Shown here piece after piece: positions 3,601 to 48,209 of a stretch of DNA of 64,000 bases (position 1 is the stretch's first letter; every line of letters starts with the position of its first letter). The notes under the pieces were generated by a model. The model made no database searches and was not told the DNA's origin. It was given only the letters and a program-made list of their open reading frames with translations. The DNA comes from Thermoplasmata archaeon (lineage in GTDB: Archaea; Thermoplasmatota; Thermoplasmata; Lutacidiplasmatales; SKW197), in the NCBI GenBank assembly GCA_026414225.1, contig JAOAJK010000002.1:13640-77639 (forward strand), in the 5' to 3' direction. Made by a program: the position numbers and the translations under genes.

Positions 3601-3844
3601 AATACACCTTTCTTCTGCGTTCCGAACCGATTACATGGGCAAGTTTTTCCTCAATGTATCCCTTATCCAGGAGACCCTTGAGTGTTCTGGGCACATGGCT
3701 CCGCAAAATTCCCACTGCCTCCGCAATTCCATCCTGTGTTACTGCAAACGGCACCTCAAAATGATCCACATACTTGGTGTATTCATACAGGTGCAGCAGA
3801 ACCTTCTCTGCAGCGGTGAGCTTTATTCTGTGTCCATTAGCCAT
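647..3844 (-). CDS. Multidomain STAND-type P-loop NTPase: N-terminal winged HTH, DUF835/KaiC-like degenerate domain, NB-ARC/AAA-like NTPase (Walker A GIAGMGKTTL, Walker B LIVFIDDF), C-terminal TPR repeat array
   Basis: 1065-aa ORF. The N-terminus resembles ArsR/MarR wHTH regulators. Residues about 150-290 (YWLSGIESEGS...VIDGLEYL) look like DUF835. The Walker A sits at about residue 380. The C-terminal 400 aa are repetitive TPR-like helices with an AYxNIGxAYxxxxxxxxAxxxYxKAL periodicity. Confidence 0.6.
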   Translation of the reverse strand: MANGHRIKLTAAEKVLLHLYEYTKYVDHFEVPFAVTQDGIAEAVGILRSHVPRTLKGLLDKGYIEEKLAHVIGSERRRKVYFLTTPGIAHAKKIREDVKAVEWIFGLPEEKEEQILKEVMEVSKKEEALAKKEEKIPTQKEKKALTEGVCYLIEFSKQEFVFSLFRKELHGKNCLFLSRIPPQRIKTLLGEEKMKIYWLSGIESEGSVSATNLVRIFSIIKSFAEEMKTGAVVIDGLEYLIAQNGLDPIIKFIHMVEDFTISNNLILIIPLSPAAVDAGFLALLEREFEVIREEGLSKAEETGRSEPAVEKPQVITTSTATPGTPSLSEFLEKISEEVTSFHAKIPAIVHFFGRHEELKKIDDFINSKTHKFMVIHGIAGMGKTTLGAKVARNYLKKCNVFWLRIYDWVNLRTIVVELSEILFLLKRHNLKNYIEAKPTIDIGEVLGILERELKNTGLIVFIDDFQKVNEEIRQFFTSLLDVVAGIEGVKFIMLSRHIVPFYDIRDVEQRKLVLELELKGLDKESTFEFLKLKGFPEHMFEQIYALTKGHPLALEFLKSPEDVKQTSSGIYKFIFNEIFMKLGETEKSFLKNVSVFRHPVSLDTIAYTFPSYTTETITNLINRGLLTHVTNNHYEVHELVREFFYNMMSPSEKHEAHSRAAHYYLDIINREGTFSERVYLECGYHLYKTKDFEKLVDVISTNSFRLLQQGYIHDILELLENLPEIAFSSRIDMYVLKGTIYDILARWNDSLKAYGAALNIARNLLSEKDRAVKLMKLYERIGHVHYNRSEWIEGIKNYEESLKIARELNDACGIAYAEQGLALIYWRTGEYEKAKQYIRDALKHAETVNDLSLFVNLKIETGMIYSELGDVNSAISEYSDAIKCAEEKYFYYEMARAYHNIGGAYLEIHDFENSVKCYEKALEIFKKLGYFRETYWTMFNLAEVYLRGKGNVAKAEEYLKEAYVNLKRIGDLHGLASVHRYMGVAKRLKGDFVGAEENLKRSVEILEKLNLPHRLAETYFELGILYKNQLRKDEAIECFEKAYAMFEKIGARVYYLRKLYDTMRE

Positions 3845-3991: not shown

Positions 3992-5404
3992 ATGGACGAA
4001 AACATAAGGTATATGTTCCATCCGAGAAGCATCGCCATAATCGGGGCATCAAACAAACTCTGGAAGGTGGGTCATGCCGTGATTGCGAATGTGCTTTACG
4101 GGGACTGTCTCAGACGGGACAGGCATCTGGGATACAAGGGCAAAATTTACCCAGTGAATCCCAACGAGGATGTCATATTTAACCTGCCTGCCTATCCCTC
4201 TATTCTGGCAATCCCTGATGAGGTTGACCTTGCCGTGATTGCAGTGCCTGCCAGGGCAGTGCCAGGGGTGATTGAAGAGTGCGGAAAAAAGGGGGTGAAG
4301 GCGGCAATAATAATTTCTGCTGGATTTGGAGAGACAGGTGAGGAGGGAAGGCGGGTTGAAGAGGCAATGGTGAAGACCGCCAGAGGTTATGGAATGCGAA
4401 TTCTTGGACCCAACTGCCTCGGGATCTACAGCCTGTATGAGGACCTGAACACCACATTTGCAAGGGCAATGCCTGCAAGGGGGCCAATTTCCTTTATCTC
4501 GCAGAGCGGTGCCTTCTGTGCCTCGGTAATCCAGTACTCGCTTGAGGAACATTTCGGTTTCTCAAATTTCGTGAGCATCGGAAACAAGTCAGACATCGAC
4601 GATGCCGACATAATCGAGTACTATGCCACGGATGAAAACACGAAGTGTGTGGCAATGTACATCGAAGCCCTGAAGAACGCAAGAAAGTTCCTGAAGGTGG
4701 CAAGGGAGGTCTGCAAGAAAATGCCAATTGTGGCTCTGAAGTCCGGGAGAACGGAAATCGGGAGAAATGCTGCAAAATCCCACACGGGCAGCATTGCGGG
4801 CAATGACATCGCCTACGAAGCCATGTTCCGCCAGACAGGCATCTACAGGGCAAGAACCATGAGCGAACTTTTCGATGCCGCAAGGGCTCTGGCTTACCAG
4901 CCACCGCCATCCCTCGATGGAGGAATTGCAATAGTGACGAACTCGGGTGGCCCTGGTGTTGTTGCCACCGACGCAGCCAGCGACCTAGGTTTGCCCCTTG
5001 CAAAACTCTCAGAACAAACCATCAATGAATTGAACAGGGTGTGTCCCCCCGAGTGGTCGCATAGAAACCCTGTGGACATTCTGGGTGACGCGAGCCCTGA
5101 CAGGTATGCAGAGTCAATCAGGGTGCTCCTCGAGGCGAAGGAGGTATCTGGATTGATTGTAATTACCGCTCCGCAGGCAATGACAGACCCTGAGACCCTG
5201 GCGAAAAGGATTGTGGAGGCAGCAAGGGGGACACACAAACCTGTGATTGCCTCGTTCGTCGGGATGATTTCAAGTCCAGCTGAAAATTATGTGGAGACCC
5301 AGGGAATACCTGAGATGTCGTTTCCGGAGGATGCCGTGTTTGGAATGCACGCGCTTGTGCATAGGGCCAGAATCTTGAGGAGGGAAGAAATATGGCAGGA
5401 ATAG
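3992..5404 (+). CDS. acdA: Acetyl-CoA synthetase (ADP-forming), alpha subunit (CoA-binding/succinyl-CoA-synthetase-like domains)
   Basis: IAIIGASNKxxKVGH CoA-binding N-terminus, then AAIIISAGFGE and GPNCLG motifs typical of NDP-forming acyl-CoA synthetase alpha. TATA TTTAATATA at 3949-3957. Its stop overlaps the start of the next gene. Confidence 0.8.
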   Translation: MDENIRYMFHPRSIAIIGASNKLWKVGHAVIANVLYGDCLRRDRHLGYKGKIYPVNPNEDVIFNLPAYPSILAIPDEVDLAVIAVPARAVPGVIEECGKKGVKAAIIISAGFGETGEEGRRVEEAMVKTARGYGMRILGPNCLGIYSLYEDLNTTFARAMPARGPISFISQSGAFCASVIQYSLEEHFGFSNFVSIGNKSDIDDADIIEYYATDENTKCVAMYIEALKNARKFLKVAREVCKKMPIVALKSGRTEIGRNAAKSHTGSIAGNDIAYEAMFRQTGIYRARTMSELFDAARALAYQPPPSLDGGIAIVTNSGGPGVVATDAASDLGLPLAKLSEQTINELNRVCPPEWSHRNPVDILGDASPDRYAESIRVLLEAKEVSGLIVITAPQAMTDPETLAKRIVEAARGTHKPVIASFVGMISSPAENYVETQGIPEMSFPEDAVFGMHALVHRARILRREEIWQE

Positions 5405-6108
5405 AGGCAAGCGAGGTTTTCGGGAAGGTGCTGGCAGAGGGCAGGACTGTGCTTTCCCTGGATGAGGCAAGAAGTGTGCTCGAGTCCATCGGGATAAAGT
5501 TCAATGCCTATGGATTTGCCGGAAATCTGGAGGAAGCGATTCAGCTCTCAAGGAAGATAGGCTACCCGGTGGCGATGAAAATTGTATCGCCCGATATAAT
5601 TCACAAAACCGAGGTGGGCGGGGTCAAGCTCTACCTTCAGAGCGAGCTGGATATTGTGCATGCCTACGAGCAGATGATGGAAAATGTGCGGAAGCTGATG
5701 CCGAATGCAAGGGTGCTTGGTGTGAGCGTTGAGGAGATGTTGAGGGGCACCGAGCTGGTGATTGGCGTCACAAGGGACGAGCAGTTCGGGCCGATGCTTA
5801 TGTTCGGGCTCGGCGGCATCTGGGTTGAAATTTATAAGGATGTATCGTTCAGAATAATCCCGCTCGAGCGTGTGGATGCCTGGGAGATGATCCATGAAAT
5901 AAAGGGAATAGAGATAATCGAGGGCGCCAGGGGCTTCGAGCCGGTAAACAAGAAAAAGGTTGTGGACTACATTATGAAAGTTTCCAGTTTTGTGGAAAAA
6001 CACCAGGAAATCGAGGAGATGGATATAAACCCTCTGATGGGGATCCGGGGGGACCTTTACGCAATTGACGCCAGGATAATTTTGAGGGGAAGAGAAGAGC
6101 AGAAATAA
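5392..6108 (+). CDS. acdB: Acetyl-CoA synthetase (ADP-forming), beta subunit (ATP-grasp)
   Basis: ATP-grasp signature (GYPVAMKIVSPDIIHKTEVGGVKL). The start is embedded in the last codons of acdA (ATGGCAGGAATAG), giving translational coupling. Confidence 0.75.
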   Translation: MAGIEASEVFGKVLAEGRTVLSLDEARSVLESIGIKFNAYGFAGNLEEAIQLSRKIGYPVAMKIVSPDIIHKTEVGGVKLYLQSELDIVHAYEQMMENVRKLMPNARVLGVSVEEMLRGTELVIGVTRDEQFGPMLMFGLGGIWVEIYKDVSFRIIPLERVDAWEMIHEIKGIEIIEGARGFEPVNKKKVVDYIMKVSSFVEKHQEIEEMDINPLMGIRGDLYAIDARIILRGREEQK

Positions 6109-8795: not shown

Positions 8796-10234
8796 GGGCT
8801 TTGATTTACAATGTATTCAACAATGCATGTGCCGAAGGGCTGAGAAAATTCTATCTGAGGGCAAAGGAACATCCTTTCATGGTGGGCTGGTTTTTTGTGC
8901 TGCTTCTAGCCGGGGAGTGGATGATAATTCAGGTCATTTCTCTCTCGGCCCTTCTGAAACTTAACACGATCGTGTCTTTCTCGTACCGTGATGTGCTGAT
9001 TTTCGGGTTCTTCCTTTTCACGGGAATTGCCTACTCCACCGCTCTCAACCATTTCGTGAAGGAGAGGAAACTTGTGTGGTATTTTTCGCAGCCGGTTGAG
9101 CTCTGGAAAGTTTTTGCCGGAACCTGGCTACTCACATTCTGGCTCATAGAAGGCGTGATTGCGATCGGGCTTTCTACAATGGTGGGAATGGTGCTTCTCC
9201 TCCAGGCACCCGTCTCGATTCCGTTTGATTTTGGCTGGAAACTTGTTTTGGTTGGGGCCCTGGGAAGTTTTGCAGGATTTGCTGGCGGGATTTTCGTATT
9301 TCTCAAGCCAATGAGAAGGAAGATAGGGTATCTCTACCTTTTCTCGATGGTCTACCCCGGGGTATGGTATGCCCTTGAACACCCTCTCCTCTTTGTTCCT
9401 GTGTTCGGTTATGTCTGCCTCCTCCTCTATCTCGCCTACAGGGCGGGACTGGAGGGCTGGAACAACGGCATCGTGCTTGAGAGAGTGCCGAAGAAAACCC
9501 AGATAAGAATTCCCGTCTGTCTGAAAGGGCAGGGAATTAAAAAGCTGGCCCACGCTGAATGGCTTTACATAGTCCGCAACAGCGAGCATGTGAGCATTCC
9601 GCTCGTGGTAGTGTTTGCGTTCTTCGGGCAGATGCTTGCACTTCGCGTGCTTCCGGCCGAAACCCTTACTGGCGCTACAGGAAAGTACACCTATGCCGCA
9701 GTTGCTGGCACAGCCCTTTTCGTTGCCTCGGCCCTGCTTTCAGTGATCAGTGCTTTGAGTGTTGTGGGCAAGGATGGTAGGGCATACTGGGTGCTTAAAA
9801 CTGTGCCTCTGAGCGGGGAAAAAATTATGCTGGCAAAAACCTACTGGGTTCTGCTAACATGCCTGGTTGCTCTGCCGCTGGTGCTTCTTGCTCTGCCCCT
9901 GTACATGTTCAGAAAAATTCCGCTGATTCTGTTTGTGGTTGCCTCTGGGATTTCAAGTGCGTTCATCTCCACTGCAGCTGGAACATGGGGGGCTGCAAGG
10001 TATCCGGATTTCTCGGCGTGGCACCGGGGTTCAACTGATATAATTACCACATACAATGTGCTGATTCTTGCACTCTTGCTGAATGTGGTTTTCCTGGGAA
10101 TTCCCTTGCAAATTTATTTCCACGACAAGGTGCTGGGCATCCTAGCGGCAATATTCTCTGCGGATATGGGTGCTCTGGCTTATCTGGTTGCCTGCAGGGT
10201 GGGGGGCAGGGAGTATGAGAAGATTGAGAAGTAG
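8792..10234 (+). CDS. ABC-2-type exporter permease / polytopic membrane protein
   Basis: GTG start overlapping the ATPase stop. More than 10 predicted TM helices and no soluble domains. Confidence 0.5.
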   Translation: MRALIYNVFNNACAEGLRKFYLRAKEHPFMVGWFFVLLLAGEWMIIQVISLSALLKLNTIVSFSYRDVLIFGFFLFTGIAYSTALNHFVKERKLVWYFSQPVELWKVFAGTWLLTFWLIEGVIAIGLSTMVGMVLLLQAPVSIPFDFGWKLVLVGALGSFAGFAGGIFVFLKPMRRKIGYLYLFSMVYPGVWYALEHPLLFVPVFGYVCLLLYLAYRAGLEGWNNGIVLERVPKKTQIRIPVCLKGQGIKKLAHAEWLYIVRNSEHVSIPLVVVFAFFGQMLALRVLPAETLTGATGKYTYAAVAGTALFVASALLSVISALSVVGKDGRAYWVLKTVPLSGEKIMLAKTYWVLLTCLVALPLVLLALPLYMFRKIPLILFVVASGISSAFISTAAGTWGAARYPDFSAWHRGSTDIITTYNVLILALLLNVVFLGIPLQIYFHDKVLGILAAIFSADMGALAYLVACRVGGREYEKIEK

Positions 10235-10236
10235 AG

Positions 10237-10310
10237 TGCGGGTGCCGGGATTTGAACCCGGGTTACAAGCTTGGCAAGCTTGAGTGATAGCCAGACTACA
10301 CTACACCCGC
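10237..10310 (-). tRNA. tRNA-Gly (anticodon GCC)
   Basis: The reverse complement folds as a cloverleaf. Acceptor is GCGGGTG/CACCCGC, anticodon stem CAAGC/GCTTG with loop TTGCCAA, and T-arm CCGGG-TTCAAAT-CCCGG. Coordinates are accurate to about 2 nt. Confidence 0.75.
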
Positions 10311-10405
10311 TTGCAAGAGGCAAATACCAAGATGGAATATATATCTTTCTTTTGCCTGATAAGTGAAACAGTTTTATATCCCCAGGGATTTACGGACTAC
10401 GCACA
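10311..10405. promoter_or_regulatory. Shared AT-rich divergent promoter region for tRNA-Gly (minus) and tRNA-Pro (plus)
   Basis: ggaatatatatc lies about 30 nt from the tRNA-Gly 5' end on the minus strand. ttttatatcc at about 10371-10380 lies about 28 nt upstream of tRNA-Pro. Confidence 0.45.
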
Positions 10406-10480
10406 GGGGCCGTGGGGTAGCTTGGACTATCCTTCTAGCTTGGGGTGCTAGAGACTCCAGTTCAAATCTGGACGGCCCCA
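10406..10480 (+). tRNA. tRNA-Pro (anticodon GGG)
   Basis: Acceptor is GGGGCCG/CGGCCCC, anticodon stem CTAGC/GCTAG with loop TTGGGGT, and T-arm CTCCAG-TTCAAAT-CTGGA. Confidence 0.75.
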
Positions 10481-10518
10481 TGGAAGTATTTATTATCTAG
10501 CCGTGAATTTCCCCTTTC

Positions 10519-11106
10519 ATGGGAACGAATTTGCATGAAGTGATCGGGCAGGCAGTTGCTGAACTGGATGAAATAGAGGCCGTGAGAGAAATCGCAATAA
10601 AGAATGCAAGAACCATCATCAAACTTTCCAGAAAGATAATCCATATGTCGCACCTCGGCAGCGATGTGAAGGAGGAGTTCAAGAAGCTGAGGGAAGAGAT
10701 GCTGACGGTGAGGGGTCTGTGCGAGAAGATCGATGCCAACAAAATTTTGCCAGTGCTGGAAGATGCCTACCAGGAATTTGGCGAGGTCTGTATTTTTCTT
10801 TCGGTGCTTCGCGGGGAGCCCCTCCCGTCTCACAAGGATTTGGGAATCACGCCGGGGGCATACCTGCTCGCGTGCGGGGATGTGATAGGGGAGTTACGGA
10901 GGTACTGCCTTAACTGTCTGAAGAAGGGCGATGTCGAGAAGGGCACGAAAATTCTCGAAATGATGGAGGAAATTTACAGCGAAATTGAGGTGCTGGATTA
11001 TCCGGCCGCCCTGGTTCCCGTGAAACACAAGATTGATGTGGCCAGGAGCATCATTGACAAAACCAGAAGCGATGTGGCCTATGCAGTAATGACGCGGAGG
11101 GGGTAA
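10519..11106 (+). CDS. All-helical protein, possibly translin family (C3PO-like)
   Basis: 195 aa with a helical composition. It has conserved acidic positions (LEDAYQEFGE, GDVIGELRR) reminiscent of archaeal translin. This is an assignment from memory, not a computed match. Confidence 0.3.
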   Translation: MGTNLHEVIGQAVAELDEIEAVREIAIKNARTIIKLSRKIIHMSHLGSDVKEEFKKLREEMLTVRGLCEKIDANKILPVLEDAYQEFGEVCIFLSVLRGEPLPSHKDLGITPGAYLLACGDVIGELRRYCLNCLKKGDVEKGTKILEMMEEIYSEIEVLDYPAALVPVKHKIDVARSIIDKTRSDVAYAVMTRRG

Positions 11107-38169: not shown

Positions 38170-40113
38170 TCAATCTCCGAAAAATTTTTTGATTGCCTCC
38201 CCGTGCTCCTCCACTTTTATGAGTCCCTCCAGAAAATCGGAAAAATGGACTGCCCTGCGGTCCAGAATGATGCCCACGCCTCTATCGGTCTCGTTCCTTA
38301 TCAATCTCCCGATTGCCTGCCGCATCTTTCTTGCGGTGGGAGCGTGCACCGTGTATTCCCAGCCCTTTCGGAATTTCATGTCGTAGTAAAGCTGGAGTGC
38401 CTTCTGTCTTGCGGACGGTTTCGGGTAAGGAATTCCAACAATCACCACAACCTCCAGTTGCCTGTCTGGAAAATCCATTCCCTCGCTCAATCTTCCCCCG
38501 GCAACCGCAAACATCACCTTGGCCCTCGTGCAATCCCTGAACCGCTCAACCATGGTCCCCATTTCCACACTGCTCAGCTCACGGTTCTCCACATAGACAT
38601 CCTTCTCAATCCTGTTCTCAATTCCGGATGCGATAAACCTATCCAGAAGAGCAAAGCTCGGAAAAAACACAATCATGTTTCTTTCTGTGGAATTGCAGAT
38701 TTCCACGACCTTCTCCCCAATGTGGTCAAGGATTTCAGGGAATGTGGAGATTTCCTCGTATCTAGTCGTAATGGTCGGGTCATACAGCAGGAGCAGATTT
38801 TCCTTAGGAAATGGAGATGGCAGGGAGAGGAGCACGCATCTTTCCTTCCCGAGACCCATGCTGTCCCTGTATTCTGCAAGGGGTGCAAGCGTGCCTGACA
38901 TGTGGATGCTCGCATGGACCGAACAGAGTGGGAGGGCAGCCACACCAGGGTCCAGGCAGAACCCGAGAATCTCAGGATTATCTCCGCCCCGGACAAGTTT
39001 CGTGTATTCCTCTCCAGTTATTGTAAACCACGAGAGCATGAAGTTGGCGACGGCCCGCATGTAGGAGCGGGGAAGCTTTCGTTCGAGCCGTTTTCTCTCG
39101 CTGTAAATCTCACCCGTTTGCAGAAGGTCCAGAATAATTGCTTTCAGCTTGTTTGAATCCACTTTCAATCTGGAGAGAATGTGTGTCTCGACATAGTCAG
39201 GCGGCACGAACCCCTCTTCCTCCTTAGCAAACTCCTCCGCACATTCAATCAGCATCTTTTCAATTTCGCCCAAGAACAGGGTGGCAGGTACAATCTTTCC
39301 CACCACGGGGTCTCCCATCTCCTCCGCCTCGTTGATTGCCGCATGCACCGTAAACCTGCTTAAACCGATGCTCTGCAGCTCCCTGCAGTAGTCCAGCATG
39401 TTGTGGGCTTCGTCTATTACCACGATTAGATGCTCTGGCCTTGCGTTCCACCATGTAAGGAGTGCCCTCTGGATGTGGGGCATGAAGAAGTAGGCGTAGG
39501 GGGCAACGACCACATCTGCGTCCTTCAAGTTTGCCTTTATCCACTCGTACGCGCAGAAGTTATGCTCCCTGGCATGCTGGTATACCTCCTCGACACTGTT
39601 CACTCTTTTCGAGAAACTGAACTCAGGATTATCGGCAGTTAGCAAATTTGCAAAGAACGGGCATCCTTCAGATACCTCCAGAATTTTACCGCTATCTTCA
39701 TCCACAAAGAAAATTTCGGTGCTGGCCGGGGCAGTTGCTAAACTTTTCAGGGTGTGCTTCTTTCTATCCCTGCAGAGCTTGGCTAGCTCCTCTGAAACTG
39801 CGGACTCAAATTCCTTGAACAGCATGCAGAGATTTACCCTGCCCTGGAGTCCGAGGGCCGTGAACTCTGTTTTTTCACGGATTTTTTTCAATTCCTTGAA
39901 GACCTGTTGCTGTTGCGTGTTGGTCTTCGTGAGGTAGAGCACTTTTTTTCCATGGCTTATCGCATACTCAACGCAGGGGACAAGGACCGCAACCGTTTTT
40001 CCGCTGCCCGTGGGCGAATCAATCAGCACATGTTGCCTTCCTGAAAGGGCTTTCCTGACAACCTCCACAATTTTTTTCTGGTTCTCTCTAGGTGTGTAGG
40101 GAAAAGATTGCAT
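38170..40113 (-). CDS. xpd: XPD/Rad3-family (DinG-like) 5'-3' DNA helicase with Fe-S domain
   Basis: Walker A DSPTGSGKT, DEAH-box-like VIDEAHNM, four Cys (C..C..C...C) between motifs Ia and II, and a C-terminal HD2. Confidence 0.8.
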   Translation of the reverse strand: MQSFPYTPRENQKKIVEVVRKALSGRQHVLIDSPTGSGKTVAVLVPCVEYAISHGKKVLYLTKTNTQQQQVFKELKKIREKTEFTALGLQGRVNLCMLFKEFESAVSEELAKLCRDRKKHTLKSLATAPASTEIFFVDEDSGKILEVSEGCPFFANLLTADNPEFSFSKRVNSVEEVYQHAREHNFCAYEWIKANLKDADVVVAPYAYFFMPHIQRALLTWWNARPEHLIVVIDEAHNMLDYCRELQSIGLSRFTVHAAINEAEEMGDPVVGKIVPATLFLGEIEKMLIECAEEFAKEEEGFVPPDYVETHILSRLKVDSNKLKAIILDLLQTGEIYSERKRLERKLPRSYMRAVANFMLSWFTITGEEYTKLVRGGDNPEILGFCLDPGVAALPLCSVHASIHMSGTLAPLAEYRDSMGLGKERCVLLSLPSPFPKENLLLLYDPTITTRYEEISTFPEILDHIGEKVVEICNSTERNMIVFFPSFALLDRFIASGIENRIEKDVYVENRELSSVEMGTMVERFRDCTRAKVMFAVAGGRLSEGMDFPDRQLEVVVIVGIPYPKPSARQKALQLYYDMKFRKGWEYTVHAPTARKMRQAIGRLIRNETDRGVGIILDRRAVHFSDFLEGLIKVEEHGEAIKKFFGD

Positions 40114-40117
40114 AGGA

Positions 40118-40828
40118 TTACTTTGCCACTATTTCAAACTCAAAGTTGGGTGTAATTACAAGCGGGTAGTATTTCCTGTCATGCTTGGTCTCCCTCATTT
40201 TCACCACACCAACAAACAGGTTCATCACACTGTTTATTCTCCGGAGGTCCGTGTGGATGATGCCGTCCGCAAGAAATTCCTCAACACCGTACTGTCCATA
40301 CTCGCTGTCTTCGCCCTTCATCTCGGTTATTAAAAACGCAGTTAGATTCATGTCCCTCAAGGTCTCGAAAAAGTAGAACAGCTGGTCTCTTGGGTTCTTC
40401 ATGTCGGAAATTGCGTAGAGCGCGTTGAGCGAGTCCAGGGCAAGAAAATCAAACCCAATATCCTGCTTGAAGGTCTTAATCTGGTTAATCAGCGACTCAA
40501 GCCAGTCCACTTTTTCGCTCGGAAACTCTTTCAGCTGCTTTCTCAAAAACCCGAGGTCAATTATTGCAAATTTGTCCTCTATCTCGGCCAGTTTCATTCC
40601 CACCTTTCCAGCCCTGCGGAGAATCAGGTTTCTCTTTTCCTCAAGAGAGATGTAGAGAGCTTTTCCGTTTCCGCGTGTCACATTTTCATAGAGGGCGTGG
40701 AGCACCAGGAGGGTCTTCATGCTTCCCGCTACCCCGCTCACTAGCACGACATGCCCATTTGGAATCCCTCCCTCCATCTTTTCGTCGAGTCCTTTTATGA
40801 ATGTGGGAATTCTGTCCATATCTAACAC
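40118..40828 (-). CDS. KaiC/RadA-like single-domain RecA-superfamily ATPase
   Basis: Walker A GVAGSMKT and Walker B hydrophobic-DSL, with a KaiC-like fold. Length 236 aa. A 4-nt gap separates it from xpd. Confidence 0.7.
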   Translation of the reverse strand: MLDMDRIPTFIKGLDEKMEGGIPNGHVVLVSGVAGSMKTLLVLHALYENVTRGNGKALYISLEEKRNLILRRAGKVGMKLAEIEDKFAIIDLGFLRKQLKEFPSEKVDWLESLINQIKTFKQDIGFDFLALDSLNALYAISDMKNPRDQLFYFFETLRDMNLTAFLITEMKGEDSEYGQYGVEEFLADGIIHTDLRRINSVMNLFVGVVKMRETKHDRKYYPLVITPNFEFEIVAK

Positions 40829-40832
40829 CTCG

Positions 40833-41087
40833 TCATGATGCCTGGTTTGACTTTTTCTCGATGATTTTTATCAAACCATCATAAATTTTTGCTGCAAATT
40901 CTTCTCCGCTCATGCCCACACATACCTTCCTGATTTCGTCAGCAAGTTTGAGGTATTCATCTCTTGAGAGGTCGCTTTTGCCGTTGAGACCGAGTTTCTT
41001 CTTCTGCATCTTGATTGTGGCACGCACCATATCCCCAAACATCATGCGGAGATATTCTTCAATTGCTGAATCAAGGTCTGTAGTCAT
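40833..41087 (-). CDS. Small helical hypothetical protein upstream of the KaiC-like gene
   Basis: ORF only. A 4-nt gap separates it from the KaiC-like gene. Confidence 0.3.
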   Translation of the reverse strand: MTTDLDSAIEEYLRMMFGDMVRATIKMQKKKLGLNGKSDLSRDEYLKLADEIRKVCVGMSGEEFAAKIYDGLIKIIEKKSNQAS

Positions 41088-41733: not shown

Positions 41734-42966
41734 TTGGTTATATACACGGTGGTGTTTTTCGTTACTGTGACACAGCACAATCTCCTTAAAAACAGGGACT
41801 TCGTGAAGTTGCTGATAGCCCAGGGAGTATCCGATTTCGGGGATGGCGTAGCTTTCCTGGGTTTCATAATGATAGCCCTTTATGTTTACTCAGGAGGTGC
41901 ATTTGAAACCAGCATTATTTTCATCTCCCTATCCCTTCCTGTAATTCTGGTCGGCCCCTTTGCAGGTGTTTTTGTGGATAGATGGAACAGGAAACACGCG
42001 ATGATTGCCTCGGATGTCTTGAGGGCGATAGCCGTCTGCATACTCCTGGTGGTGTCTACCCTCTGGTCCATCTATATCGTCTGTTTCGTGATTTCCACCC
42101 TTTCCAGATTTTTTTATCCATCCAGGGGTGCAATCATCCCCAACATTGTGGGCAAAGAAAATGTGCTCAGGGCGAATGCAATGTCCCAGTCAGTGATGTA
42201 TGCGATGAATGTAATCTCCCCTTCCGCAAGTGGTTTGCTGATTGCAATGTTTGGGGTTCAGAGCGTCTTCCTGATTGATGCTGCCTCCTATCTGTTTTCA
42301 GCGGTGATGGTGATGTCATTGAAATATACCGAGAAGCCAGGAAACCATCTGCCCGCAAGTGTGAATACGGTGGTAAAGGGTATGAGGGGAGGAATGCGGA
42401 TTTTGCTGCGAACTCCACCCGTCAAATACATCATTATTTCCTTTTCAGTCATCATGTTGTTCGCTGGAGCTGTTAATGTACTCTACCTCCTTTTTGTGAG
42501 GGATGTGATGCATCTGAACATTGTGTGGGTTGGCTATCTCGAGACCATCTTCGGGATTGGTGCCGTCATGGGAGGTGTAGTCATCACATCGCTTCCAAAA
42601 ACCACAAAGAATGCAGACCTCCTCGTCGCGGGTACATTCAGCGGCGCCCTCATAGCCCTCCTCGCCCTCTTTCCCCATCTGTATATCATTGTGCCAGGCT
42701 TCTTTTTTGTGGGGTTCTTCATGGTGTTTATCAACACGCCCCCCGCTGCAATCGTCCAGAAGACAATCCCGGATAGGGCAAGAGGAAGGGTGCTTTCGGT
42801 GATGAACGCCACCTTCCAGACAATGAGTTTGGTTTCGATGCTTACGGTATCTGCAATCCTGGCATTTGTTGACATTGTTTCTCTGTTCATCTTTGGTGGA
42901 TGCATGCTCTTTGTTCTCGGGCTTATCCTGTTCGAGAGGAAGAAGGTACGGGAGATGCTGGGATAA
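41734..42966 (+). CDS. MFS transporter
   Basis: 12 TM helices and a DRWNRK-type motif A. Confidence 0.7.
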   Translation: MVIYTVVFFVTVTQHNLLKNRDFVKLLIAQGVSDFGDGVAFLGFIMIALYVYSGGAFETSIIFISLSLPVILVGPFAGVFVDRWNRKHAMIASDVLRAIAVCILLVVSTLWSIYIVCFVISTLSRFFYPSRGAIIPNIVGKENVLRANAMSQSVMYAMNVISPSASGLLIAMFGVQSVFLIDAASYLFSAVMVMSLKYTEKPGNHLPASVNTVVKGMRGGMRILLRTPPVKYIIISFSVIMLFAGAVNVLYLLFVRDVMHLNIVWVGYLETIFGIGAVMGGVVITSLPKTTKNADLLVAGTFSGALIALLALFPHLYIIVPGFFFVGFFMVFINTPPAAIVQKTIPDRARGRVLSVMNATFQTMSLVSMLTVSAILAFVDIVSLFIFGGCMLFVLGLILFERKKVREMLG

Positions 42967-43011
42967 ACATCCATTCCAAATCTTAAAATATCCTTTTTCC
43001 ATTTCCCCCTC

Positions 43012-44091
43012 ATGCCAGAGGATGCAATTCAGAGAGTGGTCCAGGCGTTGAAGGACCTGGGCACCGGTGCTCCGGGCGTTCCTTACTTCCACGAAGGCAT
43101 ATACACACCTGTGGGTTTTGAGAGAGCGAATTTTCGGGTAATAGGAAATCTAATGGCAGGCATCCAGAAAAAAATCGTATGTGTGGACGGCGGAAATCTC
43201 GAAATTCTTTCTACACCTGGTTTTTCAATTTCTGTGATAAGGGTCGCAGGTATTGCCTTCAAAGGGTTTGAGCGGGCAAAAAACAGATTTCCGCAGAGGG
43301 TGGAGTGCTTCTGTATTGTGAAAACTGTTTTTGAGGGTAAAGAAAAGAAGTTCCAGATTTCATACTTTCCGGTTAAGGAAGAGCATGCAGAGTTTCTCCC
43401 AGGTGGTTACACGCTCTCTACGGAACCAGGCAGGATTGAGGCACTGTGGGAACTGAATCTCAAGCCCCTTTCTGCAATCTCGAACCACGCGAGAAAGTAC
43501 GCGGAATGGTTCTATCTCAAACGGATTCTTGAATTTCTGGAAGAGGGGGATGTAGTGCTTCGGGATGGAATTTTCCAGGTGAGCGATGAAATCGAGGCAG
43601 GAATTGCGAAGGAGATTTTTGAGAAAGCGAGAAACAGAAAGGTGGGACTTGCAGCCCTTGCGAAGACCACTTCTCTCCTCACAGACACAGGAATGCCTGT
43701 TGTTCAGGTGCTCCAGACCCTTGCAGACCAGTGGCAGATTGAAGCCCCCTGGTATTACTTTCCGGTTGCAGAGAACCTGGACCCCGATGTTAATGCCGAT
43801 ATTTACTTTGTGAAATTCTGCAATTCAATGGACTATGCCTTCAGGTTTGAAGTGATGAGACAAACGCTACCGGACCCCTTCCCTCTGCTCACCTTCCTCC
43901 ATGCCCACAGCCAGAACTGCATCTTTCCCGGCTATCCCTACATTCTCGTTGCCGCGGATAAAATTGCAAGGGTAGAGCAGAAGGAGGGTAAACCTTTATA
44001 TCTCCGCCTCCTCTCATTGCTTGGCAAGGACAGAAGAATCCGGAGAGCGATAAAGTCGCTCGATGCCCATGAGATGATAAGCAAGTACTGA
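43012..44091 (+). CDS. nurA: NurA-family 5'-3' nuclease (RNase-H-like)
   Basis: 359 aa. A candidate motif-I Asp sits in IVCVDGGNLEIL near residue 60, where NurA carries its catalytic Asp. It is immediately upstream of the herA-like gene with a 9-nt gap. Confidence 0.5.
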   Translation: MPEDAIQRVVQALKDLGTGAPGVPYFHEGIYTPVGFERANFRVIGNLMAGIQKKIVCVDGGNLEILSTPGFSISVIRVAGIAFKGFERAKNRFPQRVECFCIVKTVFEGKEKKFQISYFPVKEEHAEFLPGGYTLSTEPGRIEALWELNLKPLSAISNHARKYAEWFYLKRILEFLEEGDVVLRDGIFQVSDEIEAGIAKEIFEKARNRKVGLAALAKTTSLLTDTGMPVVQVLQTLADQWQIEAPWYYFPVAENLDPDVNADIYFVKFCNSMDYAFRFEVMRQTLPDPFPLLTFLHAHSQNCIFPGYPYILVAADKIARVEQKEGKPLYLRLLSLLGKDRRIRRAIKSLDAHEMISKY

Positions 44092-44100
44092 GGGGTTTCT

Positions 44101-45636
44101 ATGGATGTATGTGGACAGATTGTTTATGGAAGCTTCGGAGAGATTCTGATAAGGGCAAAGAAAGACGCGAAAATTGAGATTGGAAGTTTGCTGGTTGCCG
44201 GCGAAAATCCTGCCTATCTCCTGCAGGTGTATGACCTGGAATACGGAAGCCAGCTTGAGAAAACCCATCTTGAGCTTACCAGCGGGTTGCAGATAGAGAA
44301 TAAAGAGAAGCTGGAGTTTATTGAAGGTGAAATCCAGAACTATGTGATTGCAAGAGCAAAGGCAGTGCTGGAGGTGAGGAAGGATGGTGGTAGGGAAAGG
44401 GTGGGAGTTCCCAAGCGACTACCAGAATTCTTCGGCACCGTTCAAGAAGTTACCCCAGAGTTTCTCTCCTTTCTTGAGAAGGAAAATGAGGACGGGGTGT
44501 TTCTCGGCAATTTGCGCAGCGGTTCCAGGATTCTCCCGATTCCGGTTCGGATTCCCCTAGAAGAATCGCTCACCCACCATATTCTCATAACCGCAACAAC
44601 CGGCAGGGGAAAAAGCAATCTCCTGAAGGTGATGCTGGCGAGCATTCTGAAAACCAGGAAATGCGGGGTGTTAATCATTGACCCCCATGACGAATACTTC
44701 GGGAGGAGCGGGAAGGGATTGAAGGATTTGGAGGGTGCAGATGAAAACCTCGTGTATTACACGCCCCACACTGGAAATTTGCATGCGAGAAATGTGCGCC
44801 GCTTACTTGTAAATGCGGGAGATATAAAACCCTGGGATTTCGGAGGAGTTGTTGCCCTCTCGGATGCCCAGAGCCAGGGAATGTATGTGCTTTACGGGAA
44901 AGCGGGGGAGGAATGGCTCCTCACCCTTTTTGATGAAGAACCGGAGGCACTTGCGGGGAAGCTGGGCACTGTCCAGGTAGATACTGTAGCCGCCCTCAAG
45001 CGGAAACTAAGTTTTGCGATGGAGCGTTTTTACGGCGACGAGAGCAAGACGATTTTTACCATCCAGTCAGGCCTCGGTGTGAACACGATCTCAGAGATTG
45101 TGACCATGCTCACCGATGGTAAAAAGGTTGTAATTGATGCATCCTCCCTGAGCAATGAAGCCGAGCTTCTGCTAGCCAGCGCATTAGCTAGAAGGATTTT
45201 TGAGGAGTACAAGCAGAGGAAGAAAGACGGGACTCTGGAGCAGAGCCCTGTGGTGAGCATTGTGCTGGAGGAGGCACCGAGGGTGCTTAGAAATGAGGAA
45301 AGCATCTTCAGCAGCATTGCAAGGGAGGGCAGGAAGTTCAGAATAGGATTGATTGGAGTAACCCAGCTTGCCTCTCTTATACCGGGCGAGGTGCTTGCAA
45401 ACATCAACACCAAAATCATCCTCGGTACCGAGATGCAGCTCGAGAGAAAAACCCTGATTGAATCTGCCTCCCAGGACATTTCTACAGATGCGAAGCTGAT
45501 TGCAAGCCTGGAGAAGGGTGAAGCCCTTGTAACTTCCATTTTCACAAAGTTTGCAATTCCGATATACGCACCGCTGTTTGAGGCAGCATTTCGACAGAAA
45601 GAAAAAAAGGAGAAAAAGCTGCTGATAGGATATTAA
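44101..45636 (+). CDS. herA: HerA-family (FtsK/HerA superfamily) hexameric ATPase/helicase
   Basis: Walker A TGRGKSN, then the HerA-typical IIDPHDEY about 30 aa downstream. An N-terminal barrel region and C-terminal helical region are present. Length 511 aa. Confidence 0.8.
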
Positions 45637-45714
45637 ACTGTTATTGTTTCCATCATTTCTTGATTTCACCTGCACTATTGTGAAAACTATATATATCCGA
45701 TTTAGTTCAGCGTA

Positions 45715-46719
45715 GTGATGCAGCAGGACTTCGAGAGGGAACTGACGCTGGCAATGAACTGCCATGAGAAGGGAAATTCAAGGAAGGCCCTTGCATTGAT
45801 GAAAAAAATAAGGGAGAAATACACCGAGAAGCAGAATTTATGTAAGGTCTCTTTCCTTGAAGCGACCATCTACTATGACAACAACCGCTGGAAAAAGGCG
45901 GCAGAAAGATATGCCCGGGCAATCGAGGTCTGTGAAGACCCTGCGATGAAAATAAGGGCAATTAACGGGATTGCAAGAACCTACTGGCGACTGGGAAAAT
46001 ACGAAGAAGCGGTGGGCATGCTTGTCGATGCGGCCGAAGAGATTGCAAAAATAGATGATAAAAAGCTTGCCGGGGAGAGTAATATAAATATAGGGAATAT
46101 CTACCTTTCGATGGGAGATTATAGAGGTGCCATCCGCCATTTTGAGATGGCCATAAAAATCCTCACGGAAATTGGAGATGAATACCAGCTTTCCAGGGCT
46201 TACAACAACATCGGTGAGGCGAACAAGCTATCCGGAAATGTGGCTGAAGCAGTTCATTTTTACGAAAAAGCCCAGGAACTCGGGAAGAAATCAGGCAACA
46301 TTCGTATCTGGGGCTATGCCACTGAGAACCTTGCGGAATGCTATGCGAAGCTTCACAACTTTGAAAAAGCAGCGGAAAATGCGGAGCAAGCGTTGAAATA
46401 CTTCAGAAAAATGAAGGACACGATGATGACAGGAGTCACTTTCATGGCTTATGGAATGATATTCAGGGAAATGAAGGACTTTAAGAGGGCTGAGAAATAC
46501 TTCAAAAAATGCTTTGCCTACCTGAAGAGGGCTGAGGGTTACAATGATCTGATATTCACATACCTTGAGTATTCACGATTGCTCTGGGCAGAGGAGAAAT
46601 ACGGTTCTGCGATAAAAGTTCTTAAAAGGGCTGAGAAACTTGCGGTTAAACTCAATGCAACTAATATAATAGGAGAGATAAGAAAGGAAATCAAAAAATG
46701 CGAAATGATGGGAGAATAA
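45715..46719 (+). CDS. TPR-repeat protein
   Basis: About 8 TPR units (AxxYxxxGxxYxxxGxYxxAIxxYEKAL periodicity). GTG then ATG at 45718. TATA actatatata about 25 nt upstream. Confidence 0.7.
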   Translation: MMQQDFERELTLAMNCHEKGNSRKALALMKKIREKYTEKQNLCKVSFLEATIYYDNNRWKKAAERYARAIEVCEDPAMKIRAINGIARTYWRLGKYEEAVGMLVDAAEEIAKIDDKKLAGESNINIGNIYLSMGDYRGAIRHFEMAIKILTEIGDEYQLSRAYNNIGEANKLSGNVAEAVHFYEKAQELGKKSGNIRIWGYATENLAECYAKLHNFEKAAENAEQALKYFRKMKDTMMTGVTFMAYGMIFREMKDFKRAEKYFKKCFAYLKRAEGYNDLIFTYLEYSRLLWAEEKYGSAIKVLKRAEKLAVKLNATNIIGEIRKEIKKCEMMGE

Positions 46720-46720
46720 C

Positions 46721-47368
46721 TTGGAGTACGCAGAGATAAAATCAATCATGAAGCTAGGTGCGCTTGCAATGTCAGTTTTACTCACATTACTGATAGGTCT
46801 CAACATAAGGGCAAGGAAGGTCCACATTTATGCATGGACCGCTGCGTGGGCAATGATTTCGCTCAGAACCTTTGTTTCTCTCTCCGAGCCACTCCCGCTC
46901 GCCATCGCATTTTTAAGGGATTTGTTGATCGTACTCGCGGATGTGCTTTTCTATGTGGGCATCGCTCATCTGCTCGAAATGGACACCCATTACAAATATA
47001 TCATTCCCCTCTTTTTCCTCTTCCTCCATTTAGGAGTATCTGGAATTCTGTACCTCTTTTTCGAAAGTTCTCTGTACGGGGCCACATTCACGAACCTGTT
47101 TTCAAATCCAGTTCTTCTGTTTATCGTGTTCTATTTTTTCAATGAGGGCAGTGTCAGAACAGGGAATTTAGGGCTCAGGGTCATAGGGCTTGGTTTCCTC
47201 TTATGGGGAATTGACTTTGCAATTTTCGGGCCCCTTTATTACGGGGCCGGTTATGTATTTGCGGGGATGTGTGGCTGGACCATCGGGTTCATTGCAAGGT
47301 TAATAATCCTGCTAGGTTTCGTGCTTATCCTCCCGAAGAGAACGCTTGGAAAAATCACTGCTTCCTGA
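46721..47368 (+). CDS. 6-TM membrane protein, unknown function, adjacent to TPR gene
   Basis: The start sits 2 nt after the TPR gene stop. It is hydrophobic throughout. Confidence 0.4.
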   Translation: MEYAEIKSIMKLGALAMSVLLTLLIGLNIRARKVHIYAWTAAWAMISLRTFVSLSEPLPLAIAFLRDLLIVLADVLFYVGIAHLLEMDTHYKYIIPLFFLFLHLGVSGILYLFFESSLYGATFTNLFSNPVLLFIVFYFFNEGSVRTGNLGLRVIGLGFLLWGIDFAIFGPLYYGAGYVFAGMCGWTIGFIARLIILLGFVLILPKRTLGKITAS

Positions 47369-48209
47369 ATTTCCATGCGGAGGCAATCACCTCCCGCACG
47401 ATTCTTGCAGCAAGGGCGGAGGTGTTCCCGTTGTCGGAGGGCGGTGAGACCTCCACAACATCAAAGCCGGCAAGCCGTGGGGCAATGAAGTGAATTAACT
47501 TTTTTATCTGGAGCGGTGTCAGCCCGAAGGGTTCCGGTGTGCCAGTGCCTGGCGCATATGCGGGGTCTATTCCATCTATATCAAGCGAGAAGTAGATTTT
47601 TTCACAGCGGAGCATGTTCATTACCCTTTTCGCAACGCTTTCAATTCCCTCCTCATTTACCTGGTAGGCATCGATGTACTGTACCTTTGCGTCTCCCCCG
47701 AATTCGTCCTTTGAAACCGACCGAATTCCCAGGCAAACTACATTTTCCGGTCCAGCCATTTCAAAAATTCTCCTGGTGACGCAGGCATGGTTGTTCTTCG
47801 AGTTCATGTAACTGTCCCTGAAATCCAGATGAGCATCGACAATCAGAAAACCCGTCTCCTTGAAGCATTTTGCGGCTCCAATTGTGACAGAGTGTTCCCC
47901 GCCCAGCATTATTGGAAATTTATTGGCTCCCACGAGCTCCGCAGTGGTTTGCCGGACTAGTTCAACCATCTGGTCTACATCCCCGACTTCATCCAGATTT
48001 CCAAGGTCACACACGGGCACATCGAGGAGGTCAATCTGATGCTCGAAAAGGAAAGTTTCAAAGTTGTAGGAATGCTCCCGTATCGCATTCGGGGCGAATC
48101 TTGCTCCAGGACGGAACGAGGTAGTTCTATCGAATGGGGCCCCGAAAATTACGAATGTTGCCTCTCCAAATTCTGCAGAGGCATCCGCAAACTTAAGCAA
48201 CGATGCCAT
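47355..48209 (-). CDS. speB: Agmatinase (arginase/ureohydrolase family)
   Basis: GGEHSVT, DAHLDFRD and SLDIDGIDPAYAPGTGTPEPFGL Mn-binding motifs. Adjacent to aIF5A as in many archaea. Confidence 0.8.
   Translation of the reverse strand: MASLLKFADASAEFGEATFVIFGAPFDRTTSFRPGARFAPNAIREHSYNFETFLFEHQIDLLDVPVCDLGNLDEVGDVDQMVELVRQTTAELVGANKFPIMLGGEHSVTIGAAKCFKETGFLIVDAHLDFRDSYMNSKNNHACVTRRIFEMAGPENVVCLGIRSVSKDEFGGDAKVQYIDAYQVNEEGIESVAKRVMNMLRCEKIYFSLDIDGIDPAYAPGTGTPEPFGLTPLQIKKLIHFIAPRLAGFDVVEVSPPSDNGNTSALAARIVREVIASAWKFRKQ

Follow-up and report, generated by a model that had tools for sequence, protein, structure and literature searches.

Whether a nurA-herA pair that stands apart from mre11 and rad50 belongs to the recombination machinery of its host or to some other system is the question raised by positions 43012 to 47368 of the window (the whole stretch of DNA analysed, 64,000 nucleotides from an uncultured Thermoplasmata archaeon). 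Four consecutive genes are found here, all on the plus strand (43012-44091, 44101-45636, 45715-46719 and 46721-47368), at the places given by a first-pass annotation. The Sulfolobus/Saccharolobus operon has the order herA-mre11-rad50-nurA, whereas in the window nurA comes before herA and neither mre11 nor rad50 is adjacent. The first-pass annotation had called this order reversed and had offered two readings of it, anti-phage defence or a lineage-specific arrangement for double-strand break (DSB) repair.

Identity of the NurA and HerA proteins

The first gene of the pair (nurA, 43012..44091, plus strand) encodes a protein of 359 aa assigned to the NurA family of 5'-3' nucleases, with an RNase H/PIWI-like fold. 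Its score against the Pfam NurA family (PF09376) is 23.9 bits, above the cut-off of 21, and the match is confined to residues 201-321, the C-terminal half alone. Precomputed PF09376 matches are present on many of its homologues, and the NCBI record identical to it is named 'DNA double-strand break repair nuclease NurA'. A profile built from 25 NurA homologues retrieved S. solfataricus NurA (2YGK, E=8.9e-7), with which the DGG, AE...DG and GYP motifs of the window protein line up in the profile alignment. Moreover, when the AF2 model (pLDDT 89.7, pTM 0.87) was compared with the PDB by Foldseek, the best match was again 2YGK (E=6.5e-8, probability 1.0, TM ~0.5), followed by Argonaute PIWI domains.

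Concerning the active site, the alignment of the 25 homologues shows no variation at D59, E165, D185, K218, G307-Y310 and H353. The roles of several NurA residues have been described, namely the D58/E116/D133 triad and K202/Y298 in the Sso protein and H411 in the Pf protein (PMC3326311, PMC3300031). The Sso residues correspond to D59/E165/D185 and K218/Y308 in the window NurA, and H353, matched by position only, may be the counterpart of H411. Identity with Sso NurA in the structural alignment is ~13%. Judged by its sequence and its modelled fold, this protein, barely caught by Pfam, is a genuine but divergent NurA and a predicted nuclease; the first-pass proposal of a NurA-like protein agrees with the profile search, the catalytic residues and the 2YGK match.

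The second gene (herA, 44101..45636, plus strand) encodes a HerA-type ATPase/translocase of 511 aa belonging to the FtsK-HerA superfamily, also as first proposed. Against the Pfam HerA/DUF87 family (PF01935) it scores 83.7 bits (cut-off 23.2), and its profile retrieved S. solfataricus HerA (4D2I) with E=1.6e-33, residues 22-494 being aligned with residues 20-465. The Walker A motif TTGRGKSN (166-173) and the Walker B region EEAPRV (390-395) are invariant among 17 homologues, the invariant residues being G168-x-G170-K171-S172 and E390-E391, and K171 corresponds to the Walker A lysine K154 of SsoHerA. By these matches the product is a HerA ATPase, with SsoHerA as its best solved relative over the full length. 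The two proteins of the window belong to the same two families as the Sulfolobus/Saccharolobus HerA-NurA proteins (4D2I, 2YGK), and no solved structure matches either of them better than these.

With orthologues from various archaeal phyla, the window HerA shares 43-48% identity. It falls far below every cut-off of the NCBIfam HerA equivalogs, including HerA_Thermprot (85.5 against 800 bits) and helicase_HerA (75.5 against 970 bits) and, as far as sequence comparison goes, it is a member of a distinct, widely distributed HerA subfamily outside these curated equivalogs. A simple neighbour-joining tree, built without support values, groups the HerA proteins mostly by taxon (Nitrosopumilales, Bathyarchaeia, Methanobacterium, Thermoplasmatota), which is consistent with mostly vertical descent. 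As an observation on the pair as a whole, both NurA and HerA are divergent, and the Pfam match of NurA is marginal.

Organization of the locus

The 64-kb window contains a single NurA gene and a single HerA gene, separated by the 9 nt (44092-44100) that the first-pass annotation had given. A Shine-Dalgarno-like GAGGGG (44090..44095, plus strand) overlaps the nurA stop and lies 5 nt before the herA ATG, which is consistent with translational coupling of the two genes in one operon. In related loci, a nurA/herA spacing of 9 nt or a small overlap recurs. Upstream, a TATA-box-like element, TTAAAATAT (42983..42991, plus strand; TATA-like boxes were identified by eye), is located ~25 nt before the nurA ATG, and the TCTTAAAATA motif in this region is common to the related locus L001 and partly to L005. 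This element is a putative promoter, from which a leaderless nurA-herA transcript could start.

Profiles made from the mre11 and rad50 genes of the more distant loci L004 and L006 retrieved no Mre11- or Rad50-like ORF in the 64-kb window even at E<=1, in line with the first-pass reading. The pair is surrounded by housekeeping genes (eIF5A, aRF1, agmatinase, MCM, CDC48, GluRS and XPD), with an MFS transporter gene and tRNA-Arg as further neighbours. Composition is unremarkable, GC being 0.48 at the locus and ~0.49 in the window.

Gene order and linkage to mre11 and rad50 across archaea

The survey covered 78 genome loci with the HerA subfamily of the window, from many archaeal phyla; the best HerA match in the genome collection scanned was 70% identical. 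NurA was detected at 50 of the 66 loci with enough upstream sequence, in every case immediately upstream of herA and on the same strand. The order of the window is reversed only relative to the Sulfolobus/Pyrococcus cluster, and the first-pass description fails in this respect: by the gene orders compared here, nurA-herA(-mre11-rad50) is the normal order for this HerA subfamily in Thermoplasmatota, Bathyarchaeia, Nitrosopumilales and others, with no reversal.

Downstream of herA, Mre11 is usually found, mostly with Rad50. Among the 49 fully flanked loci, nurA-herA is followed by mre11 in 29, and the order nurA-herA-mre11-rad50 is seen in L004 (Methanohalarchaeum) and L006. The clusters of Thermoplasmatota, Bathyarchaeia, Nitrosopumilales, Methanobacterium and Methanohalarchaeum (L004, L006, L009-L087) resemble the window in having nurA and then herA, the two genes overlapping or lying apart by a few nucleotides, and with proteins 43-48% (HerA) and ~25-33% (NurA) identical to those of the window, but most of these loci run on into mre11 and rad50, which the locus of the window does not.

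On the other hand, nurA-herA without nearby mre11 or rad50 was found at 8 of the 49 fully flanked loci, all from Thermoplasmatota/DHVE2, and this stand-alone arrangement is common to the nearest relatives of the window (L001-L003, L005 and L008, three of them distinct). On this gene-order evidence, a pair set apart from mre11-rad50 is common and recurrent in Thermoplasmatota, and the alternative of a lineage-specific DSB-repair arrangement offered in the first-pass annotation proves essentially correct. The same annotation had reasoned that relatives uniformly keeping the pair unlinked, as their only copy, would mark it as the housekeeping set; L001-L003, L005 and L008 do keep it unlinked, which comes close to that outcome. 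No recurrent third gene was found after stand-alone nurA-herA in 16 Thermoplasmatota loci.

Predicted function of the pair

Taken together, nurA and herA probably form a two-gene chromosomal operon that is the host's copy of the archaeal HerA-NurA end-resection helicase-nuclease. The two genes would be transcribed as an operon and, as judged from the homologous complexes of Sulfolobus, Pyrococcus, Thermococcus and Deinococcus, their products would assemble and act as described for these (PMC3326311, PMC3300031, PMC9960219, PMC12977600). Powered by ATP, a hexamer of HerA would drive the ends of the DNA into a dimer of NurA, whose RNase H-like sites (D59/E165/D185, aided by K218/Y308/H353) would digest the strands; this would amount to long-range resection of ends in the service of homologous recombination. 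In the lineage of the window, the pair would have been split from mre11-rad50, or would never have been joined to them.

A similar layout is found in Deinococcus radiodurans, where a two-gene nurA/herA operon apart from Mre11-Rad50 is described as an end-resection machine (PMC9960219, PMC12977600) and NurA-HerA acts in recombination repair (PMC9960219). This operon is bacterial and thought to be horizontally acquired from archaea, and it is likened to the pair of the window by description, not by sequence. That HerA-NurA alone yields 3' overhangs is now questioned (PMC12977600). We give little credence to the idea that the small Thermoplasmata clade of the window, L001-L003, L005 and L008 is without any Mre11-Rad50 and uses NurA-HerA as a minimal resection machine, as in the Deinococcus proposal, or that the pair in the window and L001 is tied functionally to the TPR and membrane proteins encoded downstream. 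As a caution, a departure from the Sulfolobus operon layout should not be read as pointing to defence or to a novel function, and the significance of the locus beyond annotation is slight.

The defence reading would make the pair an anti-virus or anti-plasmid module degrading foreign linear DNA. It would then be analogous to Sir2-HerA, DUF4297-HerA or TdpAB (8WET); these defence-type HerA systems, and MADS mad8 likewise, combine a HerA-family ATPase with an effector, as does the pair of the window. The window HerA matches PADLOC mad8 (77 bits) and several HerA models, its profile reaches TdpA (E=2.5e-10), the NurA profile weakly reaches the NurA-like TdpB (E=0.018), and a defence side-role of the archaeal HerA-NurA complex has been speculated (PMC12977600). 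However, PADLOC gives NurA no match, and the window HerA scores 35.7 against 800 bits with HerA_antiphage and 15 against 850 bits with HerA_antiphage_2 (NCBIfam). Defence HerA structures are matched far more weakly than the repair HerA and over the ATPase core alone (E=1e-9 to 1e-14, while SsoHerA reaches 1e-33), and SsoHerA and SsoNurA are the best solved relatives by wide margins. Furthermore, neither Sir2, DUF4297 nor any other defence partner is encoded nearby, the neighbours are housekeeping genes without any compositional anomaly, the orthologues are found in synteny with mre11-rad50, and the HerA tree follows taxonomy for the most part; no mobile-element homologues were found when NurA was compared with plasmids and HerA with phages. 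The premise that bacterial NurA-HerA modules serve in defence is also not what the papers found describe, in which the partner of defence HerA proteins is Sir2 or DUF4297. A defence function of this pair is thus very unlikely.

Less improbable, although still unlikely, is a role mainly outside DSB repair, for example in replication-fork processing or, as an FtsK-like DNA pump, in the segregation of chromosomes, with the Mre11-Rad50 link being dispensable in this lineage. HerA is a member of the FtsK-HerA superfamily, and FtsK itself is not known from archaea. The pair is apart from mre11-rad50 in many Thermoplasmatota, and a possible part in cell division has been raised (PMC12977600). Nevertheless, all the nuclease catalytic residues are kept in NurA, the orthologues are physically linked to mre11-rad50 in most phyla, and the sequence offers nothing that separates such a role from repair.

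The TPR and membrane protein genes

The two genes after herA could suggest a single system of four genes, in which NurA and HerA act with the TPR and membrane proteins, for instance as a membrane-anchored machine for DNA processing or transport. All four lie on the same strand, separated by short spacers of 9, 78 and 1 nt, they occur together in the nearest relatives L001-L003, and HerA scores 74.9 bits against the NCBIfam model of the DNA-translocating ATPase CedD. However, L001-L003 are so close to the window (75-85% identity) that common synteny weighs little, and at L005 and L008 (66-70% HerA identity) the TPR and membrane genes are absent and convergent unrelated genes follow herA. In L088 and L089, the TPR-membrane pair adjoins agmatinase-eIF5A without NurA or HerA on the contig. 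Moreover, a TATA box, CTATATATAT (consensus CTATAAATAT; 45687..45696, plus strand), lies ~27 nt upstream of the TPR gene ATG at 45718, and its core is invariant in all four lineages compared, among them L088 and L089, which have a gene other than herA upstream; this putative promoter would start a separate transcription unit. Considering also that the 16 stand-alone Thermoplasmatota loci have no recurrent downstream partner, a four-gene system is extremely unlikely. By conserved synteny, the TPR and membrane genes stand outside the NurA-HerA module, as an unrelated unit of two genes that belongs to the agmatinase-eIF5A neighbourhood.

The TPR-repeat protein gene (45715..46719, plus strand; 333/334 aa; Pfam TPR_12, E=6e-48) most likely starts at ATG 45718, giving 333 aa as in its relatives, and not at GTG 45715. 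Its orthologues in L001, L088 and L089 are 56-85% identical, and the membrane protein gene comes directly after it in L001-L003, L088 and L089, the two being always paired. The first-pass annotation was right about the positions of both genes after the pair, about the TPR repeats, to which Pfam matches were obtained, and about six transmembrane segments, but not about an overlap between them: the TPR stop at 46719 and the membrane gene start at 46721 leave a 1-nt spacer. The polytopic membrane protein (46721..47368, plus strand; 215 aa) has six clear hydrophobic segments and a possible seventh by hydropathy. It matches no family in Pfam, NCBIfam or PADLOC and is lineage-restricted, its relatives among 5.8 billion proteins being only six clusters at at least 59% identity. 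At the 3' end, its gene shares 14 nt with the convergent agmatinase gene (47355-48209, minus strand).

Identity of the NurA and HerA proteins

The nurA-herA pair belongs to the known NurA-HerA system, of which it is a divergent yet ordinary representative. The genes nurA (43012-44091, 359 aa) and herA (44101-45636, 511 aa) are followed by a TPR gene (45715-46719, 334 aa) and a membrane-protein gene (46721-47368, 215 aa). The ORF list, Pfam and profile searches bore out the first-pass annotation in these four plus-strand ORFs, in the 9-nt spacer between nurA and herA and in the lack of mre11 and rad50, for which profiles derived from a pair of related loci gave zero matches in the 64-kb sequence with a threshold as loose as E ≤ 1. 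NurA and HerA are each present in one copy in the 64-kb window according to the profile scan, and the nurA stop codon is overlapped by a GAGGGG Shine-Dalgarno-like motif.

The 359-aa protein scored 23.9 bits with the Pfam NurA model (cut-off 21), which covers its C-terminal half only, and an identical protein has already been named "DNA double-strand break repair nuclease NurA" by NCBI. A profile of 25 homologues matched Sulfolobus solfataricus NurA (2YGK, E = 8.9e-7) with the motifs DGG, AE...DG and GYP aligned, and D59, G60, E165, D185, K218, G227, G307-Y308-P309-Y310 and H353 are invariant among these homologues. In SsoNurA, catalysis involves D58/E116/D133 and the K202/Y298 pair, and His411 is essential in Pyrococcus furiosus NurA (PMC3326311; PMC3300031). 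As read from the alignment, the conserved motifs of the window NurA are the counterparts of these SsoNurA residues, and His411 probably also has its counterpart among the invariant positions. The best PDB match of the confident AlphaFold model (pLDDT 89.7, pTM 0.87) was again 2YGK (E = 6.5e-8), with PIWI domains of Argonautes ranking next, a relationship already described for NurA (PMC3300031).

Concerning the 511-aa protein, the Pfam HerA central domain (DUF87) was recognized at 83.7 bits, and its Walker A motif (GRGKS, K171) and Walker B motif (EE) are both invariant in 17 homologues. Its profile matched SsoHerA (4D2I) over the full length (E = 1.6e-33) and the anti-phage HerAs in the ATPase core only (E = 1e-9 to 1e-14). 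Because all scores with the NCBIfam HerA equivalogs were far under their cut-offs, this protein is assigned to a separate HerA subfamily, a very large one with over 2,700 clusters in the database and members in at least 561 genomes of different species. HerA homologues of a distinct clade, at about 46% identity, are encoded in the loci L007 (7764-9557), L036 and L011. L007 has no NurA beside it, the upstream sequence of the other two is too short to tell, and Mre11 was not found within any of these loci; the clade may represent solo HerA paralogues of some Thermoplasmata and Methanobacteriota.

Gene order and linkage to mre11-rad50

Gene order was compared across 80 genome loci of the HerA subfamily (43-70% identity) from Thermoplasmatota, Bathyarchaeia, Nitrosopumilales, Methanobacterium, Woesearchaeota and Nanoarchaeota, Odinarchaeota and Altiarchaeota, plus additional loci from gene look-ups, and every locus was scanned with NurA, Mre11 and Rad50 profiles. 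The gene for NurA immediately precedes herA, in the same orientation, in 50 of the 66 loci with enough upstream sequence and is at any other position in none of them. Where at least 4 kb of downstream sequence was available, no more than 300 nt separate mre11 from the herA stop in 28/54 loci, mre11 lies further downstream in 13/54, and rad50 comes next after mre11 in most loci where mre11 is close to herA. Therefore, the normal order in this subfamily is nurA-herA-mre11-rad50, and the pair can be called reversed, as it had been, only against the herA-mre11-rad50-nurA operon of Sulfolobus and Pyrococcus.

Among the 49 loci with both flanks complete, 29 present nurA-herA with mre11 downstream, nine (mostly DPANN) herA and mre11 with NurA undetectable, eight nurA-herA alone and three herA alone. 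All eight stand-alone pairs come from Thermoplasmata, Thermoplasmatota or DHVE2; unlinked pairs are a recurrent trait of the Thermoplasmatota, and the arrangement in the window is typical for the phylum. The idea that relatives would uniformly keep the same unlinked pair is nearly borne out by the nearest ones: L001-L003 (75% identity in NurA, about 82% in HerA), L008 and L005 (70% and 66% in HerA) all have it without mre11/rad50 in the available flanks. The next NurA relative, Methanohalarchaeum (33%), carries nurA-herA-mre11-rad50. In a neighbour-joining tree of HerA, drawn without support values, the sequences group largely by taxon, as expected for a core gene inherited mostly vertically.

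Some loci showed other features. In the related locus L006, a nucleotidyltransferase/HepT-like toxin-antitoxin pair and a 103-aa ORF (9608-10539) are placed between herA and mre11 of an otherwise standard nurA-herA-mre11-rad50 cluster. Ten DPANN-type loci (L012, L019, L025, L033, L048, L058, L070, L076, L079 and L080), some labelled Methanosarcinales, have herA with mre11 0.2-7 kb downstream, and neither NurA nor Rad50 was detected in their flanks with the profiles used.

TPR and membrane-protein genes

The TPR ORF has strong Pfam TPR matches, and the membrane-protein ORF, with no Pfam match, presents six clear hydrophobic segments and possibly a seventh in the hydropathy analysis. These genes, reported as overlapping, are separated by 1 nt, and the probable start codon of the TPR gene is ATG 45718, not GTG 45715. 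The sole in-window relative of the TPR protein (73 bits) is the TPR part of a 1065-aa STAND/MalT-like protein (647-3844, minus strand) with an N-terminal HTH-like region, a GIAGMGKT P-loop and C-terminal TPR repeats.

Both genes follow herA in the window and L001-L003, the only loci where this occurs. In L005 and L008, herA is followed by convergent unrelated genes, and no downstream gene recurs across 16 stand-alone Thermoplasmatota loci. The membrane-protein family is very small, with six clusters in 5.8 billion proteins and identities of 59% or more. Together with a TPR protein of 333-339 aa, the polytopic membrane protein (208-215 aa) is encoded in a conserved unit of two genes whose TATA-like box is invariant (window 45687-47368; L001 12626-14354; and two further lineages, L088 4236-5950 and L089 4230-5965), always convergent to agmatinase-eIF5A. 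In L088 and L089 the pair adjoins agmatinase-eIF5A on contigs where neither NurA nor HerA is present; the genes upstream encode a GFO/IDH-type oxidoreductase plus a methyltransferase in L088 and hydrogenase subunits in L089. The box, CTATAAATAT, is located in the 78-nt herA-TPR spacer, some 27 nt upstream of the start codon of the TPR gene, and its core is invariant in the four lineages whatever gene is upstream. We infer that it is an archaeal TATA promoter of a leaderless TPR-membrane transcript; a similar box, TTAAAATAT, precedes the nurA start codon by about 25 nt. Given the lack of synteny in L005 and L008, the occurrence in L088 and L089 and the spacer box, the four genes are two independent, adjacent units, the TPR and membrane-protein genes are bystanders, and a four-gene membrane-linked system is extremely improbable.

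Possible role of the NurA-HerA pair

A defence role of the pair was also considered. HerA gave generic PADLOC matches, including mad8 at 77 bits, the NurA and HerA profiles match TdpB and TdpA weakly, and the destruction of foreign DNA has been speculated to be an extra role of archaeal HerA-NurA (PMC12977600). However, NurA has no PADLOC match, the anti-phage HerA models stay far under their cut-offs, Sir2, DUF4297 and other partners are absent, the pair lies among housekeeping genes in DNA of unremarkable composition, the orthologues are syntenic with mre11-rad50, and there were no NurA matches on plasmids or HerA matches on phages. The association of bacterial HerA-NurA modules with anti-phage defence did not agree with the literature found, where defence HerAs are partnered with Sir2 or DUF4297 instead of NurA, and the Deinococcus pair has a role in recombination repair (PMC9960219). 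The evidence for defence is thin, and such a role is very unlikely.

By homology, a HerA hexamer would feed the ends of duplex DNA to a dimeric NurA that would digest the strands. In Sulfolobus, F300/I295 touch the N-terminal barrel of HerA, and the GYPY patch (307-310) of the window NurA may do likewise. In vivo, the digestion would probably follow an initial processing by Mre11-Rad50, encoded elsewhere. This end processing is the likely role of the pair, and a non-repair, FtsK-like one seems unlikely.

Regarding the surroundings, the window comes from the chromosome of an uncultured hot-spring archaeon of the Thermoplasmata, with GCA_038891235.1 and GCA_038870955.1 among its relatives. In this stretch, housekeeping genes are abundant (MCM, CDC48, GluRS, RNA polymerase subunit D, aRF1, eIF5A, agmatinase, XPD and five tRNAs) and the composition is even (GC of 0.48 in the nurA-herA region versus about 0.49 window-wide). 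An MFS transporter gene is located directly 5' of nurA in the window (41734-42966), in L001-L003 (8751-9950 in L001) and in L008 (7631-8848), so this adjacency is kept further out than that of the TPR and membrane-protein genes; it is probably simply retained synteny. A tight minus-strand cluster (38170-41087), 2 kb upstream of nurA, comprises an 84-aa ORF and the genes of a 647-aa helicase of the XPD/Rad3 type and a 236-aa KaiC/RadA-like ATPase; this neighbourhood is not kept in L001, where ribosomal protein genes are upstream. In Methanohalarchaeum thermophilum (L004), two Csa3_N/HFX_2341_N-like genes (4886-5632 and 8847-9644) are found just upstream of nurA-herA-mre11-rad50, recalling the regulation of nurA/herA by Csa3a reported in Sulfolobus (PMC12977600).
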